A DNA stretch of 64,000 nt from an uncultured Chromatiaceae bacterium (GTDB lineage: Bacteria; Pseudomonadota; Gammaproteobacteria; JAADHS01), in assembly GCA_964421045.1 (NCBI GenBank), contig CAYQVF010000009.1, positions 4,380-68,379 on the forward strand. Reading direction: 5' to 3'. Shown in pieces: positions 6,728 to 45,213 of the stretch. The notes beneath the pieces were generated by a model. The model saw only the letters and a program-made list of their open reading frames with translations, searched no databases and was not told the DNA's origin. The stretch's first letter is position 1, and each line of letters begins with the position of its first letter. A program made the position numbers and the translations under genes.

Positions 6728-6822
6728 ATGTACGGATTACGCCGTGCAGTCTGGGCAAAAAAAGTCGGTTGTCGTGTAGCCAAATCGGTTTTTAACAGGA
6801 AGCTCAAAAAAGCAATACTGAG

Positions 6823-6900
6823 GTGTAGTAGCTCAAATCTAAACTAACAGACACCCTAAAAAAACGGGTAACTGTCAGATTAGGTCTGAGCTACTACATC
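6823..6900. terminator. Imperfect ~20-bp inverted repeat (GTGTAGTAGCTCAAATCTAA ... TTAGGTCTGAGCTACTACATC) between convergent genes
   Basis: Seen directly in the sequence. The arms are 6823-6842 and 6880-6900 with a ~37-nt spacer and 2-3 mismatches. It sits between the 3' ends of the TelA-like (+) gene and the LVIVD (-) gene. No U-run follows, so it may not be an intrinsic terminator. Confidence 0.3.
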
Positions 6901-7111
6901 TAATTGTTTGATTAATTCTTCAACTGTAATTTTCGACATTATATATCCTTTATTTGATGCAACGTAACAACTGCGATTAAAAACATAGTCGAGTAGAGCC
7001 AGGCGTGCGCAATCTTAGGTGAAGAGTTTTTCCGACCTGTACTTTTTGCGGTTGTGCAGCGGGTTCCTAGTTTCACCCTCATCCACTTTTCCTATGCCCT
7101 CTCTAATATAC

Positions 7112-27877: not shown

Positions 27878-27963
27878 AGGATTTGAACTCTTCCGTAATC
27901 AAATTATGAATTTAGTATTTTAACACGAGATTGATTGATCGGTACGGAGGGATATGAATTGAT

Positions 27964-28040
27964 GGCGGAGCGGACGGGACTCGAACCCGCGACCACCGGC
28001 GTGACAGGCCGGTATTCTAACCAACTGAACTACCGCTCCA
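27964..28040 (-). tRNA. tRNA-Asp (GTC)
   Basis: Reverse complement GGAGCGGTAGTTCAGTTGGTTAGAATACCGGCCTGTCACGCCGGTGGTCGCGGGTTCGAGTCCCGTCCGCTCCGCCA. This gives a cloverleaf with a GTC anticodon loop and the GGTTCGAGTCC T-arm. Confidence 0.9.
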
Positions 28041-28048
28041 ATAATTTT

Positions 28049-28123
28049 GGTGGGTGCTGAGGGGATCGAACCCCCGACCCTCGCCTTGTAAGGGCGATGC
28101 TCTACCAGCTGAGCTAAGCACCC
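28049..28123 (-). tRNA. tRNA-Val (TAC)
   Basis: Reverse complement GGGTGCTTAGCTCAGCTGGTAGAGCATCGCCCTTACAAGGCGAGGGTCGGGGGTTCGATCCCCTCAGCACCCACCA. The anticodon is TAC. Confidence 0.9.
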
Positions 28124-34444: not shown

Positions 34445-34529
<85 letters not shown>

Positions 34530-34586
34530 AAATATTATTATTAGCAGCTATTTTAAGATGATTTCTGTTAATCACCTTATTCAATT

Positions 34587-34663
34587 TGGGGTGGATGATG
34601 GGGCTTGAACCCACGACCACCGGAATCACAATCCGGGGCTCTACCAACTGAGCTACACCCACC
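34587..34663 (-). tRNA. tRNA-His (GTG)
   Basis: Reverse complement GGTGGGTGTAGCTCAGTTGGTAGAGCCCCGGATTGTGATTCCGGTGGTCGTGGGTTCAAGCCCCATCATCCACCCC, with the extra 5' G characteristic of tRNA-His. The anticodon is GTG. The exact 3' end is uncertain. Confidence 0.85.
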
Positions 34664-34750
34664 ATATTTTTCGCGTAACCGTCCAGCGTCATTCCAACCG
34701 CTGAATCGTTGCTTCCTTACTACTGGCCTGACAAGCCCTTTTAATAAAAA

Positions 34751-34827
34751 TGGCGCGCCTGGCAGGATTCGAACCTGCTACCCTCGGCTTAGAAGGCCGA
34801 TGCTCTATCCTGATGAGCTACAGGCGC
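34751..34827 (-). tRNA. tRNA-Arg (TCT)
   Basis: Reverse complement GCGCCTGTAGCTCATCAGGATAGAGCATCGGCCTTCTAAGCCGAGGGTAGCAGGTTCGAATCCTGCCAGGCGCGCCA. The anticodon is TCT. Confidence 0.88.
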
Positions 34828-34912
34828 AAGTCACCCTGCGTACCTACCAAAAATAACGTGGCATAGACCTTCACAGCTTTTGGTATAAAGACTGCTCTGT
34901 CTGCCAATTTCT

Positions 34913-34989
34913 TGGTCGGGGTAGAGGGATTCGAACCCCCGACATCCTGCTCCCAAAGCAGGCGCGCTACCAGACTGCGCTATACCCCG
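34913..34989 (-). tRNA. tRNA-Pro (TGG)
   Basis: Reverse complement CGGGGTATAGCGCAGTCTGGTAGCGCGCCTGCTTTGGGAGCAGGATGTCGGGGGTTCGAATCCCTCTACCCCGACCA. The anticodon is TGG. Confidence 0.88.
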
Positions 34990-35037: not shown

Positions 35038-36126
35038 TCAAGAAATAAGAGGCGTTACAGATTGAACACCTTGATTTTGAGCTCGATGGCGCAACATATG
35101 ATCCATTAAGACTAAGGCCAACATCGCTTCCGCGATAGGGGTGGCGCGAATACCGACACAAGGATCATGTCGCCCTTTGGTGACCACCTCTACCACCTCA
35201 CCTTTTTTATTAATAGAACGCCCAGGTAACAAGATACTCGATGTCGGCTTCATCGCAATGCTAGCGACGATATTTTGTCCGGTAGAAATACCACCGAGCA
35301 CCCCCCCTGCATTATTACTCAAAAACCCCTCTGGCGTTAACTCATCACGGTGCTCTGCACCCGACTGCTCTATCGAAGCAAAACCCGCTCCAATCTCTAC
35401 CCCTTTTACCGCATTGATACTCATTAAGGCATGAGCTATGTCAGCATCCAGACGATCAAAAACGGGTTCCCCCAAACCGGGAGGCATCCCCGTGGCAACC
35501 ACATTCACTCTGGCACCAATGGAGTTCCCCGCCTTGCGTATTTTTGTTATGTAGCTTTCCAAAGCCTGTATTTTTTCCGGATCCGGAAAAAAAAATGGGT
35601 TTTTCTCAATGGCGAACCAGTCTAGTTTTTCAGCTTTAATTTCACCTATTTGCTGCACATAACCCCGAATAGTAATGCCATATTCTGCGTCAAGATATTT
35701 TTTTGCGATACCCGCTGCGGCAACCCGCATCGCGGTTTCACGAGCAGAAGATCGCCCTCCTCCGCGATAATCCCGCACTCCATATTTTTGCTGATAGGTA
35801 TAATCTGCATGTCCAGGGCGAAATTGTTCTGCAATATCAGAATAGTCCTTGGACCGCTGGTCTTCATTCCGAATCAGCAAACCAATCGGCGTCCCCATGG
35901 TTTTTCCTTCAAACACACCGGACAGTATTTCAACCTGGTCGGACTCTTTACGCTGCGTGGTATAACGCGAGGCTCCAGGTTTGCGACGATCAAGATCCCG
36001 CTGTAAATCAGCGGCTGTTAATGGCAAACCGGGCGGGCAACCATCCACCACCGCCCCTAACGCTGCGCCATGGCTCTCTCCAAAGGTGCTAACTGTAAAT
36101 AATTTACCAAAAGAATTACCTGACAT
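35038..36126 (-). CDS. aroC: Chorismate synthase
   Basis: 362 aa with an N-terminus [20 protein letters not shown] and [15 protein letters not shown]. The length and motifs are typical of AroC. Confidence 0.92.
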
Positions 36127-37651: not shown

Positions 37652-38497
37652 TTATTTGACAAATTTCAGCAACATGCGATCGCTCTCACCAATGGTGAGA
37701 TATTTTTTCTGATTTTTTTCGCCGAGACGCAAAGTCGGTGGCAGCGTCCAGACGCCTTTGGAATGGTTTTTACTGTCCTCAGGGTTGGCCAGTAACTCTG
37801 ACTTTTCCACCAGTTTAAAGCCTGCTTTTTCTACCAGTGCGATGGTATAGGCTTCATTCACATACCCTGATTTTGCTTCGGTGTCTTGTTCAATGTCAGG
37901 GTTGCCACGATGCTCAACTAAACCCAGTGTGCCGCCAGGCTTGAGTGCGGTATACATCGCCCCAAGTACTGCATCGCTGTTATTTGCCGACATCCAATTA
38001 TGGACGTTGCGAAAGGTGAGCACCAAATCAACCGAGCCAGGGGGCGCAATTGTGATTTTTGTTGGCGGTGCCAGCTCAGTGACAATGACTTTATTATAGA
38101 CAGCTGGATTCGCAGCAAGCTTTTCATTGAATGCTTTAGCGTTACGCCGAAAATATTCTATTTCTGAGCCGGCATCAAAACCCGCCGCATAGAAAGTACC
38201 TTTTTCTCTCAGATAGGGCGCCAGAATTTCGCTATACCAACCCCCACCGGGCGTAATTTCAACCACCGTCATATCCTCTTTTAATCCCAGCCAGGTCAGT
38301 GTTTCTAACGGCTTACGATAGGGATCGCGTGCGCTATTTTTTGCACTGCGGTGATCGCCATTGATGGCCTGCAACAACTTGGTATCGCCACCCGGGTTCA
38401 AATCATCCGCTACAGCCAATATAGAAAAAGATGCCAGCAATGCAAAATAAAGTGTAGTCAAAAGACAAGCTCGATAACGTAATGGAAAAAAATGCAT
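37652..38497 (-). CDS. Secreted SAM-dependent methyltransferase (class I MTase fold)
   Basis: 281 aa with a signal peptide and a motif I-like segment (VVEITPGGGWYSEIL). The acidic/aromatic patterning is typical of small periplasmic predicted methyltransferases. Confidence 0.55.
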   Translation of the reverse strand: MHFFPLRYRACLLTTLYFALLASFSILAVADDLNPGGDTKLLQAINGDHRSAKNSARDPYRKPLETLTWLGLKEDMTVVEITPGGGWYSEILAPYLREKGTFYAAGFDAGSEIEYFRRNAKAFNEKLAANPAVYNKVIVTELAPPTKITIAPPGSVDLVLTFRNVHNWMSANNSDAVLGAMYTALKPGGTLGLVEHRGNPDIEQDTEAKSGYVNEAYTIALVEKAGFKLVEKSELLANPEDSKNHSKGVWTLPPTLRLGEKNQKKYLTIGESDRMLLKFVK

Positions 38498-39424: not shown

Positions 39425-39862
39425 GATAAATCCTTCCATAGAGTCAATAAAATTAAAGTTTAAAACATTATTAATGCAAGCCTTTAAACGACATTTTTGA
39501 ATCAACGTCAAACACCTTGACGACAAAACAAATTCGAACTAATAACCGTTTGTGCTTTGCATGTAGAAGATCATAATGATTCATCCTTAAATCAAACTGA
39601 AAAAATAAACCTGAAAGAAAATAAACCTTAGCGTTTTAAAAAAACATGTGATGTGAAGTGATCTAATATACCCATGGTATTAGCGTGTGCAAACATGCAA
39701 ATAGAAACTAAATTTGTGCACCACTTGCATAAGTTATTTAATTTTGATTCCCTATATTCGGTTTTTACGATTAAAAAAATGCAGGCCTGGCTGGTTAAGC
39801 CGAGACTATTTCAGATAAAAGCAGTGAAGTGGTTCTGGATCACAATTTATGTAGTTATAGGG

Positions 39863-40813
39863 TTAACTACCACAACTATCACTAGAACCCGAAACTTTCC
39901 CATCTTGCTGTTCAATCCAGACCACCATATCCTTCCATACTTCATAGGCCTGTAAATCCCTGAGAAGCAAATGGTAGCCCTGCGGATAAAAATGAACCTC
40001 AAGCGATTTATGAAGACGAGCAATTAAACGACAAACCGAATGTAGTGGAATCACTTCATCTTTTTGTCCGTATAATATTAAAACTCGACGTGATAACTGA
40101 GGTGCCACGGTAAAAGCTTCGTCCATGAGCTGCACTAAACCATACAAAGAATCAAATCTGCTCTCACGAATAAGCTGTTCATCTTTACTCATTTTTCTCA
40201 ATAAGGAAATATTGTCACTGACTTGAATACCTAAACTCTCGCCCGTTACCGTATACCAAGGAACAGTATGTGATGCCAACCAAAGAATAAGCCGGTAAGC
40301 CCGGTTCATCGTCTCGCCCCCCCAAATGGCTGGAGCATTTAAAATACTGCCTGCAACGTTTAAGTCTGGAAACCGAACCAGAGTTGAAACAACCACGGCA
40401 GCACCCATGCTGTCTCCTAATAAATAGATTGGTGTATTAGGATGTTGCTTTTCAATGATAGAGATGAAGTGATACAAATCCATTTGCAAGCGATTCTTGC
40501 CAGGCCAAAGCCCTCGATGCAGCGTTGCCCCAAACCCTCTTTGGTCGTAACTATAAAAAGCAAACCCCTGTTTAGCCAAAAAAGAACCCGGCAGAACAAA
40601 TGCGTTACGATAATCGTTAAAACCATGAACACCAATAATCACGGCACGGATGTGTTGTTGGGGTAACCACACCGCAACTGGCATCGTTATGCCATCTTGA
40701 GCAATAAACAACTCTCCTATCAAAACAGGAGATTGATTAACCGGCAAGGAAGGATGAATAACAGGAGCACAGCTAGATAGAATAAAAACAAAACCGACAA
40801 GCCATCTATACAT
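39863..40813 (-). CDS. Alpha/beta-hydrolase lipoprotein (lysophospholipase/monoacylglycerol-lipase-like, Hydrolase_4 type)
   Basis: 316 aa with a lipobox (FILSSC) and HG oxyanion motif (GVHGFNDY). The nucleophile elbow is GDSMGA, and a His lies near the C-terminus (GYHLL). Confidence 0.65.
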   Translation of the reverse strand: MYRWLVGFVFILSSCAPVIHPSLPVNQSPVLIGELFIAQDGITMPVAVWLPQQHIRAVIIGVHGFNDYRNAFVLPGSFLAKQGFAFYSYDQRGFGATLHRGLWPGKNRLQMDLYHFISIIEKQHPNTPIYLLGDSMGAAVVVSTLVRFPDLNVAGSILNAPAIWGGETMNRAYRLILWLASHTVPWYTVTGESLGIQVSDNISLLRKMSKDEQLIRESRFDSLYGLVQLMDEAFTVAPQLSRRVLILYGQKDEVIPLHSVCRLIARLHKSLEVHFYPQGYHLLLRDLQAYEVWKDMVVWIEQQDGKVSGSSDSCGS

Positions 40814-40833
40814 TAGGCCGTCCCTTACATCTT

Positions 40834-41412
40834 TTATCCAGGCAATAAATTTTCTTCTAGCTGACGGGACATCTCTCCGGTGATACTCGCATTATCACTG
40901 GCAATTTCAGCATAAAGTCGATGTACCAGCGTTGAATAGTCCTGTGGATCTATCTCTCCACCTTGACCTTTTTTCGAAAGTGAAACCAGATAAGGAATAT
41001 CCAGACCTTTAATAGCCAACGTTTCTAACACCGGCCCATATCGCCACAATTTGCCTTCTCCCGCTTCAAGATCGGCAACATATTTCGCCATTGTCATTCT
41101 AACAGGATATTCAAACCGGGAATCTGCAACTAACCAAACGACAGAACCAATAACACTGGCTGGAATCATCAAAATCCAAACTGTTTTAGCAAAAGTGCTA
41201 TCGGGTACAACACCATTAGACCAACCAAAAAAAGCAACGCCAAAACCCAGCATATAAACAGCACTGGCAGCAATCAAACCAAACAGTTTGGATTTTCCCT
41301 TACCAGGCCGAATTAAACTTTTATATTCTAATCGTGAGAAATCAAAATCAGTCTCTAACTGTTTAACGATGACTTTTTTTATATGCCGACGACTCTTTGC
41401 TTTGCCAGCCAT
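40834..41412 (-). CDS. Two-TM inner-membrane protein of unknown function
   Basis: 192 aa with a basic N-terminus. It has two hydrophobic helices (LFGLIAASAVYMLGFGVAFFGW; TVWILMIPASVIGSVVWLVA) and a soluble C-terminal domain. Confidence 0.5.
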   Translation of the reverse strand: MAGKAKSRRHIKKVIVKQLETDFDFSRLEYKSLIRPGKGKSKLFGLIAASAVYMLGFGVAFFGWSNGVVPDSTFAKTVWILMIPASVIGSVVWLVADSRFEYPVRMTMAKYVADLEAGEGKLWRYGPVLETLAIKGLDIPYLVSLSKKGQGGEIDPQDYSTLVHRLYAEIASDNASITGEMSRQLEENLLPG

Positions 41413-41442
41413 TCAGTGACTCCATTTCATACTTTTGTAAGC

Positions 41443-41898
41443 TTAACCACAACGCATCGGTTTTTGCCGTTCAATGAGATTAGCTGCTGCTTTCACTTCC
41501 CGGGAAGATAACTCTTTTAATAAGGCATTACGTTCAGCGGCTGCCAAGGGTACGGATTGATCCGCAGCCAAACGATACCATGCATAGGCTAGAATCAGAT
41601 CTTGCCTGTGGCTTTCACCGTAGTGTGTCGCCATGCGTAAACCATAAAAACGACCCACTTCATATTGGGCGGGACCATAGCCCTGCTCCGCAGACTTGCA
41701 AAACCACTGCAATGCAATAGGGGTATCATGCCCGGCACCAAAACCACAACAATATTCCAAACCTAATTGATATTGCGCCTTTGGGTCACCTTGTTCTGCA
41801 CGCACAATGAGCTGGTCAACCTTATCACGGGTTGGTGACTTGAAACTGCAACTGCTTACTACCAAGCTCATCAACCCAAATAAAACCAGCCACCTCAT
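41443..41898 (-). CDS. Sel1-repeat (TPR-like) lipoprotein
   Basis: 151 aa with a lipobox (VVSSC). It has Sel1-type repeats (AEQGDPKAQYQLGLEYCCGFG...ALQWFCKSAEQGYGPAQYEVGRFY). Confidence 0.65.
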   Translation of the reverse strand: MRWLVLFGLMSLVVSSCSFKSPTRDKVDQLIVRAEQGDPKAQYQLGLEYCCGFGAGHDTPIALQWFCKSAEQGYGPAQYEVGRFYGLRMATHYGESHRQDLILAYAWYRLAADQSVPLAAAERNALLKELSSREVKAAANLIERQKPMRCG

Positions 41899-42305
41899 AG
41901 ACTCTCGCCCACGCTATATGGAAATTCAAATATTTTTTCACCTCGCCTGCATTTCACTTTAAACTCCAACACCCAAGCCCCCACCCCATCAAATACTGCG
42001 GTTCTTCCGTGGTATACACCAGCAGGACTACGCTCTTCCATTCTTCGCCATTCTGCTAAAGTATCTCTGGGACTATTTTTATTATATTGTTGAAATTTAA
42101 TATCACACGCAGAAATTCCTCTCCGTTCTTTTCTCAGTGTCGCATATATTTTTGCTGTTTCCCCGACAACAAGAGGGTGTGGATCATTCGTAATAGAAAT
42201 AAAATACTCGGGGGTTTCTTGAGTTTGAGTAAACTGGCCTAAATCACAAGCAAACAAACTCATGGTCAGCAGCAATATTATTATTTTTCTCATCACTTGC
42301 CTCAT
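41895..42305 (-). CDS. Lipoprotein of unknown function
   Basis: 136 aa with a lipobox (SLFAC). It overlaps the Sel1 gene start by 4 nt. Confidence 0.5.
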   Translation of the reverse strand: MRQVMRKIIILLLTMSLFACDLGQFTQTQETPEYFISITNDPHPLVVGETAKIYATLRKERRGISACDIKFQQYNKNSPRDTLAEWRRMEERSPAGVYHGRTAVFDGVGAWVLEFKVKCRRGEKIFEFPYSVGESL

Positions 42306-42341
42306 AGCTAAGAATTTTATTGATTCAACTCAGTATGCCTC

Positions 42342-43580
42342 TTATTCTACTTTAATCAGGGGAAATTTTGCGACAATGGTCATTTTATCATCTCCCCGCA
42401 AAACAACAATAGGTAACCAGGTACCCGCTTGCATTTTTCTTACGATATCAATCACTTCGATCACTCGTTTAATTTTAATTCCGGCCATCTCAACAAAGAT
42501 ATCTCCCGCCACTAACCCCGCTGCTTGCGCCAAACTTTCATCAATAACCCGACTTATTTTTACTCCTTTTTTCGCTGATTCAATATGTACACCCAGCTTC
42601 TGCTTGCCCGAAAACCCATTTTTCGGCAGTGCAGGCATACCATAAACAGCGCTGGCAAAATCGGATGTTAACATTTCACACTCATATTCTTGTTCCCATG
42701 GAATGAGAGTCGCAACATTTTTAACACCTAAATCCGCTAATTGATGAGGCACACCAAAACCATTCATAATATGTCCGCTGCCCATAATGGCGACAACTTG
42801 ACGTTTGGGCATCGCCTTGACCAAGGTCTCAATACCGTGAGCCATAGCACGATCCCACAACTGCTGCCCTTGGACAAATCGTTGAAAACCACTGTCCTTT
42901 TTCAATTTATCCAGATCTAATTTTTTTGATTTTTTTCCATCTGTTGATGCACCATGATGACCATGTAACGAATAAGTAGACGCGAGCATCTCTAAATAAG
43001 CATCGCCAGGACTGGCCGGATCACGAATCCCATCTCTTTCGGATTTAGGAATATTAAACCAACCTCTCTCTTTTACTTTTTTCTTTAAGGTTTGTTCCAC
43101 ATTAATACCATATAGGGGTATATTATTCATGCGTGCGAATCGCAAGATAGGAAGATAAAGTTCGGCATCAAATTTCCAATATTCATACCACTTTGACTCT
43201 TTAAGAAAAGTTTCTTCGTTCGTCTCTCCCCTTACCCATCGATCTAATGCGGGCTGCGCACTCCGAGGTAACATTTCAAGACCTATCGCCAGGGCTGAAC
43301 TCTGACCATACAAAGCGGCTATTGTTGCCAGTTCCCAATCATGATGGAGTACGCTGTCATGAAATTCACCTAACAACACAACCTGGTTCGTGGCCAGATT
43401 TTTTATGATCTCCGGTGTAGAGCGCTGCTGATTTTTTTTTGCGGTTTGCCAAATATAAGGTGGCACACAAATTTCTTGTTCACTCGTATCCGATATAGCC
43501 ACGGTGGGCATCATAACCATCATCAACATACACAAAAGTACACCGCCTGTGCCAAACCCTGGTTCAAATGTCCTTAGCAT
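42342..43580 (-). CDS. ChaN/Tiki/TraB-superfamily (haem-binding-uptake-like) protein with C-terminal PDZ domain
   Basis: 412 aa with an N-terminal hydrophobic segment. It has a GEFHD motif (VVLLGEFHDSVLHH) and a later GSGHI motif, as in the Tiki/ChaN/PrgY fold. The C-terminal ~90 aa are PDZ-like (GVKISRVIDESLAQAAGLVAGDIFVEMAGIKI...). Confidence 0.55.
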   Translation of the reverse strand: MLRTFEPGFGTGGVLLCMLMMVMMPTVAISDTSEQEICVPPYIWQTAKKNQQRSTPEIIKNLATNQVVLLGEFHDSVLHHDWELATIAALYGQSSALAIGLEMLPRSAQPALDRWVRGETNEETFLKESKWYEYWKFDAELYLPILRFARMNNIPLYGINVEQTLKKKVKERGWFNIPKSERDGIRDPASPGDAYLEMLASTYSLHGHHGASTDGKKSKKLDLDKLKKDSGFQRFVQGQQLWDRAMAHGIETLVKAMPKRQVVAIMGSGHIMNGFGVPHQLADLGVKNVATLIPWEQEYECEMLTSDFASAVYGMPALPKNGFSGKQKLGVHIESAKKGVKISRVIDESLAQAAGLVAGDIFVEMAGIKIKRVIEVIDIVRKMQAGTWLPIVVLRGDDKMTIVAKFPLIKVE

Positions 43581-43648
43581 CCTATGTCTTCCCTTAATTT
43601 AAGTGGCAATCTGCTGGCTCATTTTGATGCTCATTAAGCCTTTCCCCC

Positions 43649-43685
43649 CTGGGACACCGTCAAGGCTATTTTGACGGTGTCCCAG
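43649..43685. promoter_or_regulatory. Perfect 15-bp inverted repeat CTGGGACACCGTCAA-N7-TTGACGGTGTCCCAG upstream of the envelope operon and downstream of cysG
   Basis: Seen directly; it is preceded by a C7 tract. No adjacent U-run occurs on either strand, so it is a candidate operator or RNA stem-loop rather than an intrinsic terminator. Confidence 0.45.
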
Positions 43686-43818
43686 TGTAATCTCCTTGAC
43701 TAGTTTACCTTAAACAGCCAAACTCAGGAGGCGACAAAACCAAATAAGGAGAAAACTTAATAAATTGAAGTTGAATAGGTCAACACCTCATGTCTAGGCG
43801 TATTGCAAGAACGGCTTT

Positions 43819-45213
43819 CTAACCGCGATGTTTCAGATTAAACCAGGCCAGTTGATGATGTAGCTTAACCACATCACCGACAATAATGAGCGTGGGTGCA
43901 TGAACTTTTGCCTGAGCAACGATCTCGGCCAGACTGGCCAGTGTACCGCTGAAAACACGTTGCTTACTGGTGGTGCCTTGCTCAATCAAAGCGGCAGGAC
44001 GGGTAGCGGGCGCACCATGGGCTTGTAAGGCGGCACAAATGATATCTACGCCCTTTAAGCCCATATAAATAACGACGGTTTGCTGAGGTTGTGCGAGCAT
44101 AGACCAATTGAGATTAATGCTACCATCCTTAAGTTGCCCGGTGACGAAGCTAACGGATTGAGCATAATCTCTATGGGTCAGCGGTATGCCGGCATAGGTG
44201 GCGCACCCTGAGGCCGCCGTGACACCCGGGACAACTTGAAATGTAATATTATTTTCGGCTAACAGGGCAATTTCTTCTCCCCCTCGACCAAAAATAAACG
44301 GGTCACCGCCTTTCAGACGTAATACCCGCTTCCCTTCTCTAGCCAGATCAACCAGAGTTTGATTGATTTCTCCTTGCTGCATAGCATGATTTGCCCGATG
44401 TTTACCGACATAAACCCGCTCTGCATCGCGGCGTACCAAATCCAATATTTCGCTTGAAACCAACCGATCATAGAGCACAATGTCAGCCTGTTGCATTAGC
44501 CTCAGGGCTCGAAAAGTCACCAAATCCGGGTCTCCAGGGCCGGCACCCACTAAATAGACTTCACCTGTCGTTGACGCCAAGGTAATGTCATTATTCAGCT
44601 CAGCATGCAACGCCTGGCGCGCCTGTTCTTCTCTACCTGAAAAAACCAGCTCAGCAACCGATCCACTTAATACTCGTTCCCAAAAACGTCGGCGTTCAAC
44701 AGTTTCACTAAAACGTAATTTAACGTGCTCTCTGAACGTACCCAACAGACCGGCCAATTTTCCATAGGCCGTCGGAATCATCGTTTCCAGACGGGCACGT
44801 AACAAACGCGCTAAAACCGGTGAAGTGCCTCCGGTTGAAACAGCAATTAATACCGGGTCGCGCCTGACAATAGAAGGCACCGTAAAAGTACACAAATCAG
44901 GACAATCAACCACGTTAACTGGAATATAACGAGCGGTAGCAGTACGAGCGACGAGTTGATTAACCTGTTGGTCATCCGTTGCGGCAATAACCAGAACGAT
45001 GCTATTGATGTCTTCTGGAGAAAATTTTCGCGCATGGTGTTTGATCTGCTGCTGATTCAATGCCATTTGCAAGCGACGACAAAGTGCAGGAGCAACAACC
45101 GTAACTTGTGCCTGGGACTGCAATAACAAGTTAATTTTTCGTGCTGCAACTTCACCGCCGCCAATAATCAAGCAGGGTTGATCCTTGACTTTGAGTGTAA
45201 TGGGGAAATGCAT
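43819..45213 (-). CDS. cysG: Siroheme synthase (uroporphyrinogen-III C-methyltransferase / precorrin-2 dehydrogenase / ferrochelatase)
   Basis: 464 aa with an N-terminal NAD-binding dehydrogenase part (LIIGGGEVAARK). The C-terminal methyltransferase part has VYLVGAGPGDPDLVT and a conserved tail. Confidence 0.88.
   Translation of the reverse strand: MHFPITLKVKDQPCLIIGGGEVAARKINLLLQSQAQVTVVAPALCRRLQMALNQQQIKHHARKFSPEDINSIVLVIAATDDQQVNQLVARTATARYIPVNVVDCPDLCTFTVPSIVRRDPVLIAVSTGGTSPVLARLLRARLETMIPTAYGKLAGLLGTFREHVKLRFSETVERRRFWERVLSGSVAELVFSGREEQARQALHAELNNDITLASTTGEVYLVGAGPGDPDLVTFRALRLMQQADIVLYDRLVSSEILDLVRRDAERVYVGKHRANHAMQQGEINQTLVDLAREGKRVLRLKGGDPFIFGRGGEEIALLAENNITFQVVPGVTAASGCATYAGIPLTHRDYAQSVSFVTGQLKDGSINLNWSMLAQPQQTVVIYMGLKGVDIICAALQAHGAPATRPAALIEQGTTSKQRVFSGTLASLAEIVAQAKVHAPTLIIVGDVVKLHHQLAWFNLKHRG

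Follow-up and report, generated by a model that had tools for sequence, protein, structure and literature searches.

A ChaN-PDZ protein and its envelope-targeted neighbours: a lineage-specific gene set with a possible periplasmic hydrolase in uncultured Gammaproteobacteria

Whether genes that stand back to back in an uncultured bacterium work together, and in what process, is the question raised by a locus of a Chromatiaceae bacterium, found in the 64,000-nucleotide stretch of DNA which was analysed here and is called the window. Five minus-strand open reading frames (39863-43580) are tightly packed in it, with spacers of +36, -4, +30 and +20 nt, and they are present exactly where an earlier note, made from the sequence alone, had placed an envelope operon. 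The features needed below are as follows.

39784-39801, minus strand: terminator-like stem-loop with a T run, found by a sequence scan 62 nt past the hydrolase stop
39863-40813, minus strand: hydrolase lipoprotein gene, 316 aa, Hydrolase_4, lipobox LSSC
40834-41412, minus strand: two-TM protein gene, 192 aa, inner-membrane orphan family
41443-41898, minus strand: Sel1 lipoprotein gene, 151 aa, lipobox VSSC
41895-42305, minus strand: lipoprotein gene, 136 aa, beta-sandwich, lipobox LFAC
42342-43580, minus strand: ChaN-PDZ gene, 412 aa, ChaN/Tiki fold with C-terminal PDZ, signal peptide
43649-43685, no strand assigned: perfect inverted repeat, 15-nt arms, 100% complementary, 7-nt spacer
43754-43783, minus strand: weak sigma-70-like promoter candidate TTGACC-N18-TAAGTT, read from the sequence, upstream of the inverted repeat

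The cluster lies between hemN and cysG-serS as the earlier note had named them, except that hemN does not adjoin the hydrolase gene, since a 168-aa secreted reading frame and a 281-aa methyltransferase-like one intervene. The accessory-like character claimed for this location disagrees with the base composition, the GC content being 0.38-0.44 in the cluster and 0.41-0.49 in the flanks. Transcription of the cluster probably ends at the stem-loop 39784-39801. What the earlier note said of the domains and topology of the five products was right (Pfam, lipoboxes, signal peptide, hydrophobic helices): there are three lipoboxes, one signal peptide of non-lipobox type, on ChaN-PDZ, and a 192-aa protein with two hydrophobic helices. 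When a lipobox is defined as [LVI][ASTVI][GAS]C closing a signal peptide, those of the Sel1 protein and the hydrolase fit and LFAC of the 136-aa protein fits loosely; the lipobox Cys is kept in all full-length ortholog calls (the hydrolase call in genome L086 is N-terminally truncated), and Cys pairs as well as lipoboxes are conserved among the orthologs.

The ChaN-PDZ protein matches Pfam PF04187 (Cofac_haem_bdg) over profile positions 2-213 of 213, with 192.2 bits for the whole protein against a gathering threshold of 27.7 (E=1.5e-56), and is composed of a ChaN/Tiki-fold domain (residues ~59-281) followed by an HtrA-type PDZ domain (~325-405). The latter scores just under the gathering cut-offs of PDZ_2 (26.7 bits vs 27) and PDZ_6 (25.6 vs 27), matches PDZ domains of the DegS/DegP/HhoA type, with DegS/DegQ PDZ chains found at E ~1e-3, and is reported as a PDZ family in the precomputed domain lists of nearly all homologs. 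A survey of PDZ proteins in 2019 already listed the PDZ-ChaN fusion as an uncharacterised family named 'ChaN' (PMC6411480). The Tiki signature consists of GExH, another Glu some 30 residues further along, GxxH and a basic residue conserved close to the active site, and this 2His/2Glu set with the basic residue is essential by mutagenesis in a Tiki-family endopeptidase (PMC6254334). The set is complete in ChaN-PDZ: among 29 diverse homologs E72, H74, E102 and H270 never vary, and R244 is nearly invariant. The His and Glu residues that the earlier note, taking them for metal-binding, had made a condition of its reading are thereby present. The whole set has its counterparts at matching positions of 2g5g, the sequence of the ChaN crystal structure, in an alignment of low identity covering only residues 52-150 and 232-287 (E=7.6e-5).

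Because the full Tiki catalytic set is kept, a hydrolase role for ChaN-PDZ is plausible from its sequence. Conservation of the motif is no proof of catalysis, since the Campylobacter ChaN of 2g5g keeps the same motif and is reportedly a haem-binding lipoprotein, not an enzyme; its dimer reportedly binds cofacial haem through a Tyr ligand with His/Lys contacts, and to our knowledge it is the only experimentally studied member of the family. The conserved Cys38/Cys301 pair and the signal peptide fit a periplasmic location of ChaN-PDZ; a lipobox is absent from the window protein and present in some homologs. More than 2,000 homologs were detected, widespread in Proteobacteria and carried by most sampled Nitrosomonas and Nitrosospira genomes. 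In about 65 of 88 clustered loci (80 of them from named genomes) the immediate neighbour of the gene is M1-peptidase-like, which is a proteolysis-related context for the family.

The 136-aa lipoprotein, which starts at the next ATG in public assemblies (132 aa), matches no Pfam family, and the acidic +2 residue behind its lipobox is invariant. It is modelled with moderate confidence (pLDDT 71.5, built from 4 sequences) as a beta-sandwich of CrdA/P19/YtkA-like type, closest to periplasmic Cu/Fe-binding proteins. It is 9-12% identical to its structural matches, and Ig-like sandwiches of this kind are common; compared with YtkA/CtaK of B. subtilis, CrdA of H. pylori and P19/FtrA, there is no fully conserved His/Met ligand set. 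Among the candidate-ligand positions of the family only the Cys67/Cys119 pair, probably a disulfide, is invariant. For CtaK, conserved His and Met residues have been put forward as copper ligands (PMC9145763); His43 and Met89, possible counterparts of these, occur in seven of eight orthologs and are lost in genome L087. A YtkA-like assignment by PF13115 was rejected, as the window protein gave no match at E up to 1, and only one of four members of the 136-aa family passes the 25.9-bit threshold, at 26.1 bits.

The Sel1 protein has four conserved Cys and matches Sel1 structures at up to 1.7e-38. It exceeds the gathering threshold of PF08238 in two stretches (51.1 bits vs 30.7, E=1.5e-13), a score above the threshold with at least two repeats being our definition of a Sel1-repeat protein. 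Identification as MerG, the phenylmercury resistance protein (NF033786), was discarded at 59.7 bits against an equivalog score of at least 350, only the Sel1 repeats being in common. The hydrolase was called by a Pfam score over threshold together with a GxSxG nucleophile, Asp and His: it reaches 171.2 bits with Hydrolase_4 (threshold 27, E=3e-50), and its triad S135 (in GDSMG), D252 and H281 is conserved in orthologs. M. tuberculosis Rv0183 (PDB 6eic) aligns over the full length (E=8.5e-16) with the Ser-Asp-His triad in common; what sets the window protein apart from the monoacylglycerol lipases Rv0183 and human MGLL is its signal peptide and lipoprotein nature. The 192-aa protein, for which neither a Pfam family nor a fold match was found, is a member of a rare orphan family, with a basic N-terminus, TM helices at ~42-65 and ~74-98 and a helical C-terminal domain. 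The basic N-terminus, the two helices and the model point to an N-in/C-in topology with ~95 C-terminal and ~40 N-terminal residues in the cytoplasm and only ~10 in the periplasm, so that most of it would face the cytoplasm, which corrects the earlier note. Distant homologs have an ABC-2 transporter and PilZ as neighbours, or close a Bat/MoxR-VWA operon.

How far this gene set is conserved was examined in relatives. The ChaN-PDZ, 136-aa, Sel1 and 192-aa genes co-occur in the window and in L083, L084, L086, L089, L091 and L094, seven related uncultured Gammaproteobacteria from marine and vent sites, in at least four distinct upstream settings; they are hence not the unrelated singletons that the earlier note had considered as the contrary outcome. 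As all these genomes belong to one clade, the synteny is owed in part to shared ancestry. In none of them are the 136-aa and Sel1 genes separated, and the Sel1 start overlaps the preceding 136-aa gene by 4 nt in the window and in the near-identical L094. The five-gene operon of the earlier note holds only in part: the compact five-gene form is confined to the window's own sub-clade (the window, L083 and L091), and the linkage of the hydrolase gene to the rest is inconsistent, its ortholog being absent from L084 and L089 and missing from L094, where the proteins are 94-96% identical and the contig, with four genes, starts inside ChaN-PDZ. L084, L086, L087 and L089 carry the cluster broken up or incomplete. 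An opposite-strand PilZ gene parts ChaN-PDZ from the other genes in L084, L086 and L089, which means that co-transcription, which may be supposed for the window, is not conserved; an extra gene of 329-351 aa separates the Sel1 and 192-aa genes in L084 and L086 and precedes the 192-aa gene on the short contig L093; in L087, ChaN-PDZ adjoins an M1-like gene and is separated by 3 kb, tex included, from the 136-aa/Sel1 pair. None of the cluster partners turned up in 80 distant ChaN-PDZ loci (~40% identity), although profile HMMs were used to look for them, which means that they do not serve the ChaN-PDZ enzyme as general cofactors.

The hairpin ahead of the cluster raises a question of its own. 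Its perfect 15-bp arms and 7-nt loop were confirmed, 133 nt past the cysG stop and 68 nt ahead of the ChaN-PDZ start; it folds at -29 kcal/mol (z ~ -6). It had been called the strongest palindrome of the window, and it is the longest perfect one, with a more stable inverted repeat (-43.8 kcal/mol) at 6810-6912; the C7 tract described beside it is a C6 tract (43644-43649), whose last C is the first base of an arm. An intrinsic (Rho-independent) terminator, defined as a GC-rich stem-loop with a U run directly after, was rejected: the stem is there, but what follows it reads GGGGGAAAGG on the minus strand and GTGTAATC on the plus strand, a U/T run being absent from both sides, and the terminator scan did not report it. 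The hairpin occurs once in the window, has no exact match in metagenome contigs, and gave no credible match in Rfam (one at E=0.54, far under the gathering score). It is very unlikely to be a protein-binding operator controlling the cluster, as the earlier note proposed, even though chance would hardly produce its dyad symmetry (0.004 perfect repeats of this kind are expected, approximately, in 64 kb), it lies close upstream of the first start codon, and one arm holds TTGACG, a -35-like hexamer. No acceptable -10 follows this hexamer, no transcription-factor gene adjoins the cluster among the reading frames of the window, and arms of this length in so stable a stem are seen more typically in structural elements of RNA or DNA than in operators. 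The orthologous clusters of L083, L084, L086, L087, L089 and L091 have no similar palindrome upstream, and hence nothing supports the hairpin as the operator of these genes. The likeliest reading is that of a local RNA stem-loop separating the serS-cysG unit from the cluster, at a transcript end or in a leader, rather than a conserved operator; if the candidate at 43754-43783, which the promoter scan did not report, were used, the cluster transcript would carry the hairpin in its 5' leader.

Taken as a whole, the cluster is in our reading a lineage-specific envelope set in which a PDZ-guided periplasmic hydrolase of Tiki/ChaN fold acts with lipoprotein accessory factors, to which we give a probability of roughly 0.4. 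The HtrA-type PDZ domain would take hold of envelope proteins by their C-termini or by exposed peptides, and a peptide (or ester) bond would be cleaved at the His/Glu active site. The 136-aa and Sel1 lipoproteins, always together, would most likely be the accessory factors and may interact physically with the hydrolase; by the E. coli sorting rules the former would stay in the inner membrane and the latter go to the outer membrane, and they could position or regulate the enzyme or present substrate to it. The two-TM protein and the lipase-like lipoprotein would be looser and probably separable associates. The earlier interpretation is borne out in part, and nothing points specifically to the lipid remodelling or signalling that it suggested.

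This reading has to be weighed against the view, rather unlikely in our estimate, that there is no functional unit at all, unrelated envelope genes having become neighbours through narrow-clade ancestry and genome compaction in the window's lineage. The absence of the partners from the distant loci, the loss or replacement of the hydrolase even in L094 with its 94-96% identical proteins, the interrupting PilZ and extra genes, the split in L087 and the quite different contexts of distant 192-aa homologs all speak for it. However, the order of the four core genes holds at ~50% protein identity, a divergence at which neutral synteny is usually eroded, even though the surroundings on both sides differ in at least four ways; the 4-nt overlap, the very short spacers in the window and the matching envelope-targeting signals on all secreted members also argue against mere adjacency. 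We consider it unlikely, and more so, that the cluster is a periplasmic haem or metal (Cu/Fe) module, in which ChaN-PDZ would bind haem like the Campylobacter ChaN, the 136-aa protein would be a metal chaperone of CrdA/P19/YtkA type, and both, together with the Sel1 scaffold, would hand a cofactor on to envelope enzymes or sequester it. The loss of His43 and Met89 in L087, the lack of a YtkA model match and the low identity of the structural matches to a common fold weaken the chaperone; flanking haem and copper genes vary between genomes, no TonB receptor or ABC importer adjoins the cluster, and the PDZ domain and invariant catalytic set would be left unexplained.

The ChaN-PDZ family is of interest as a widespread one with a complete Tiki-type active site and a function still unassigned, for which the cluster offers the Sel1 and beta-sandwich lipoproteins as candidate partners. 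The direct value of the cluster is limited, since only a few Gammaproteobacteria, all uncultured and from marine or vent sites, carry it, and the M1-peptidase pairing in cultured nitrifying Betaproteobacteria is a more tractable lead.

Among known systems, Campylobacter jejuni ChaN (Cj0177, PDB 2g5g) is an envelope protein of the same PF04187 family with aligned GExHD, E and GxxH positions, from which the window protein differs by its C-terminal PDZ domain, its non-lipobox signal peptide and the lack of an adjacent TonB-dependent receptor. The Tiki superfamily (Tiki1/2, the MARTX RRSP endopeptidase, the erythromycin esterases EreB/Bcr135, TraB/PrgY) has the same 2His/2Glu and basic residue, and the 30 residues from E72 to E102 match E3900 to E3930 of RRSP (PMC6254334); no sequence-level match of ChaN-PDZ was found outside the ChaN branch of the superfamily. 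As an analogy only, the locus would share with Prc-NlpI and CtpA-LbcA the logic of a periplasmic PDZ hydrolase that is encoded together, or acts, with a repeat-protein lipoprotein. Tail-specific PDZ proteases work there with TPR lipoprotein adaptors (Prc-NlpI in E. coli, CtpA-LbcA in P. aeruginosa), and the differences are that the enzyme is an S41 serine protease rather than a Tiki/ChaN fold, and that the repeat protein of the window is a 151-aa Sel1 protein and neither NlpI nor LbcA. A bolder extension, which we regard as quite improbable, would make the cluster an envelope-spanning processing system not described before, in which a Tiki-fold hydrolase replaces the serine protease of such a pair, tethered by the inner-membrane beta-sandwich and outer-membrane Sel1 lipoproteins and coupled to the cytoplasm by the two-TM orphan, with the ChaN-PDZ family as a new class of periplasmic peptidases. 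If ChaN-PDZ proteins are peptidases, they would add a new catalytic fold to periplasmic PDZ-guided proteolysis.

The five genes of the envelope cluster were confirmed by ORF calling as minus-strand open reading frames, and the feature is real. Spacing between them is +36, -4, +30 and +20 nt in the order of transcription, and the cluster is bounded as follows:

43783-43754, upstream of the hairpin: weak candidate promoter, TTGACC-N18-TAAGTT (read from the sequence)
42342-43580, minus strand: ChaN-PDZ, 412 aa, a ChaN/Tiki-fold protein with a C-terminal PDZ domain (ORF call)
41895-42305, minus strand: 136-aa lipoprotein (ORF call)
41443-41898, minus strand: Sel1 lipoprotein, 151 aa (ORF call)
40834-41412, minus strand: 192-aa protein (ORF call)
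39863-40813, minus strand: hydrolase, 316 aa (ORF call)
39801-39784, 3' of the cluster: terminator-like stem with T run (terminator scan)

Regarding the surroundings, a placement between hemN and cysG-serS had been proposed, which holds on the side of cysG (43819-45213) and serS upstream, but not on the hemN side, where a 168-aa secreted ORF and a 281-aa methyltransferase-like ORF intervene. The latter (37652-38497, minus strand) has an N-terminal signal-peptide-like hydrophobic segment, and its matches to class I SAM-methyltransferase domains are weak (E=1.8e-4 at best, all below gathering score); export of a methyltransferase-like protein would be unusual. That the cluster was acquired horizontally, as an accessory island, was rejected, since the GC content is unremarkable and no mobility genes or tRNA genes were found beside it; about 5 kb separate it from the closest tRNA cluster. 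The window has two tRNA clusters, at 27963-28123 (Asp-Val) and 34445-34989 (minus strand; Leu-His-Arg-Pro), neither adjoining the gene cluster. This sequence is also recorded as contig VAPK010032721.1 of the metagenome-derived assembly GCA_006243085.1.

ChaN-PDZ matches the Pfam family Cofac_haem_bdg/ChaN (E=1.5e-56), PDZ models score slightly below the Pfam threshold, and direct matches are found to the ChaN crystal-structure sequence 2g5g and to the PDZ domains of DegS/DegQ. Among 29 aligned homologs of 40-75% identity, E72, H74, D75, H79, H80, E102, H206, H270, C38 and C301 never vary and R244 hardly does. The active catalytic set of the Tiki superfamily was described in the study of RRSP as two His, two Glu and a basic residue, laid out as GExH, a Glu 30 residues later and GxxH, with every residue essential by mutagenesis (PMC6254334). 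The window's ChaN-PDZ carries exactly this set with matching spacing, thus the His/Glu motif ascribed to it is retained, and no loss of these residues is observed in the alignment. The fusion was already listed as an uncharacterised PDZ family in a 2019 survey (PMC6411480). Its homologs number more than 2,000. Assignments of cluster proteins to MerG, AlgK, MamE or DegP-type equivalogs were rejected, because their scores, far below the cut-offs, reflect merely the common Sel1 or PDZ domains.

Whether the five genes are conserved together was put up for checking in the earlier note, and they are so only at short evolutionary distance. Most close relatives share four or five of the genes, but all four partners are absent within 7 kb from 80 of 80 distant ChaN-PDZ loci, searched by tblastn and ortholog-built profile HMMs. 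These loci come from named genomes, mostly Nitrosomonas, Nitrosospira and Burkholderiales with some Alphaproteobacteria, and their ChaN-PDZ proteins stand at about 40% identity; a general co-conservation is ruled out by them.

Arrangement of the cluster genes in relatives (identity of ChaN-PDZ to that of the window).
L083 and L091, 75%: all five genes, compact; HU flank, with purEK also in L091
L094, 96%: four genes, no hydrolase; contig begins within ChaN-PDZ; CreA and SCO1 after
L086, 53%: orthologs of all five genes; PilZ on the opposite strand following ChaN-PDZ; Sel1 and 192-aa genes separated by a 351-aa gene; YkuD, Lpp-like and YkuD genes upstream
L084, 52%: four genes; PilZ on the opposite strand; 329-aa gene homologous to the 351-aa one of L086; non-orthologous Hydrolase_4 further downstream; upstream genes differ
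L089, 51%: four genes; PilZ on the opposite strand, but nothing else inserted; non-orthologous Hydrolase_4 further downstream; YkuD, Lpp-like and YkuD genes upstream
L087, 50%: M1-like gene, ChaN-PDZ and tex in this order; 136-aa/Sel1 pair 3 kb beyond; 192-aa gene not found in range

The 136-aa and Sel1 genes adjoin in every one of these genomes. From these arrangements, the 136-aa/Sel1 pair is therefore the tightest unit, followed by ChaN-PDZ, the 192-aa gene and, most loosely, the hydrolase; only the window's sub-clade has the five genes in compact form. In L094 (2678-4284), a relative at 94-96% identity, an opposite-strand CreA gene, an ORF of 120 aa and the copper-chaperone gene SCO1/SenC occupy the place of the hydrolase, therefore the downstream boundary of the cluster was rearranged recently.

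Other neighbours vary as well. Just upstream of ChaN-PDZ in L086 (4301-7108) and L089 (3277-5712), an Lpp-like 'Alanine_zipper' gene lies between two YkuD (L,D-transpeptidase) genes, and a single YkuD gene lies upstream in L087 and L088 (L087:515-1069), a possible sign of a context related to the cell wall or Lpp. The 329-351-aa family, absent from the window, has no Pfam match and 30-36% identity among its members; its genes lie between the Sel1 and 192-aa genes (L084:10946-11935; L086:11854-12909) or, on a short contig, just upstream of the 192-aa gene (L093:206-1261).

In the wider ChaN-PDZ family, an M1-peptidase-like gene (~681 aa) lies directly downstream of ChaN-PDZ in about 65 of 88 clustered loci, often overlapping it, and purL is directly upstream in 45 loci. 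These are again mostly Nitrosomonas, Nitrosospira and Burkholderiales (L003-L082; e.g. L054:7270-9315; also L087:2687-4864), and cultured isolates of Nitrosomonas, Nitrosovibrio and Azospirillum are among them. No M1-like gene occurs within the window. The M1-like gene seems to be the ancestral partner of ChaN-PDZ, and the more general one.

As for the partner proteins, the Sel1 lipoprotein has two Sel1 repeats, with the lipobox and four cysteines conserved among orthologs. The hydrolase aligns over its full length to monoacylglycerol lipases (6eic, E=8.5e-16), with S135, D252 and H281 present and the lipobox conserved; lipid remodelling, suggested previously, finds nothing beyond this lipoprotein, whose linkage to the cluster is inconsistent. 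The 136-aa protein of the window has no Pfam match, and one ortholog narrowly passes the YtkA model. Its AlphaFold model, built from 4 sequences, predicts a beta-sandwich (pLDDT 71.5). Three features do not vary across eight orthologs: the Cys that is lipid-modified, the acidic character of residue +2 and the pair Cys67/Cys119; an acidic residue at +2 is the inner-membrane retention signal in E. coli. A metal site is possible and no firmer, since one ortholog is without His43 and Met89. A metagenome scan for further loci of this gene found no additional contig. In the 192-aa protein a basic N-terminus is followed by two TM helices and then a C-terminal domain that is helical (model pLDDT 82), on account of which its bulk is predicted to be in the cytoplasm. 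When profiles of the families of the 136-aa and 192-aa proteins were searched against PDB sequences, no meaningful match came up.

The 192-aa family is represented by just 11 clusters in an index of 5.8 billion proteins and 45 representative clusters among 1.84 billion. In L095 (2226-4500) its member stands after DUF349 and before an ABC-2 transporter; in L100 (609-3428) and L101 (3146-5965) it follows the orthologous ABC-2 transporter and then directly a PilZ gene. The transporter pair is 45% and 37% identical between L095 and L100, and the PilZ inside the cluster in L084, L086 and L089 belongs to a different family. The 192-aa family may thus be linked to c-di-GMP signalling or an exporter. 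Another member ends a MoxR/DUF58/DUF4381/VWA/VWA-TPR/BatD operon (L096:965-11170), with a TraB/PrgY/GumN gene, of the Tiki superfamily like ChaN, 1.7 kb downstream, a second and loose co-location of the orphan family with a Tiki-superfamily gene.

The hairpin between cysG and ChaN-PDZ (43649-43685) consists of two perfectly complementary 15-nt arms around a 7-nt spacer, and folds at -29 kcal/mol (z ~ -6); chance alone would produce about 0.004 such perfect repeats in 64 kb. It was taken for the strongest palindrome of the window beside a C7 tract, but the tract reads C6, and an imperfect inverted repeat at 6810-6912 (43-nt arms, 77% complementary, z ~ -8.5 on either strand) is the most stable hairpin found within the window, at -43.8 kcal/mol. 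By the terminator scan the hairpin at 43649-43685 is not a canonical intrinsic terminator, and it has no U/T tail on either strand; canonical ones are found elsewhere in this genome, e.g. at 39801-39784 and 38981-38957. The palindrome AAAGCCTGTATTTTTTCCGGA/TCCGGAAAAAAAAATGGGTTT at 35561-35602, between the tRNA cluster and the hemN 3' end, is bordered on either side by T/A runs and resembles an intrinsic terminator that works in both directions. The 43649-43685 hairpin is single-copy in the window, metagenome contigs scanned for its exact pattern gave no match, and an Rfam scan of its intergenic region gave a single one (E=0.54, far below gathering score); neither a repetitive element of REP type nor a known family of RNAs is thus supported. 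It would lie in the 5' leader if the candidate promoter at 43783-43754 is used, and we read it as a local structure of the RNA where the serS-cysG unit borders the cluster. That it serves as an operator is improbable: no counterpart was found upstream of the orthologous clusters, so that its proposed role as control site of the gene set gains no support as a conserved operator. Concerning the hairpin alone, this idea is compatible with any of the three readings of the proteins.

Among these three, we tentatively favour, at a probability of about 0.38, that ChaN-PDZ is a periplasmic Tiki-fold hydrolase engaging peptide termini through its PDZ domain, with the two adjoining lipoproteins as clade-specific accessory factors. 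Four observations support it: the catalytic set is invariant, the PDZ domain is of HtrA type, the gene neighbours an M1-peptidase-like one in the wider family, and the cluster genes occur together within the clade. That the cluster is mere inherited synteny and no functional unit is somewhat doubtful; in its favour, the partners are missing beyond the clade, and some genomes of the clade have the cluster interrupted. A haem or metal handling module is rather unlikely; the haem precedent of ChaN and the structural neighbours of the 136-aa protein speak for it, but the ligands are not invariant and the flanking genes are variable.

The domains, residues and targeting signals are observed in the proteins themselves, and their co-occurrence in one clade is observed too; the cluster, confined to a few uncultured genomes, holds two nearly orphan proteins and one widespread uncharacterised enzyme family. 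From these we infer an enzymatic activity of ChaN-PDZ, its substrates and interactions among the products. As a periplasmic Tiki-fold hydrolase, ChaN-PDZ would engage peptide termini with its PDZ domain, and the adjoining lipoproteins, the putative beta-sandwich one and the Sel1 one, may serve as clade-specific accessory factors, by analogy with the TPR-lipoprotein adaptors that act with PDZ proteases.
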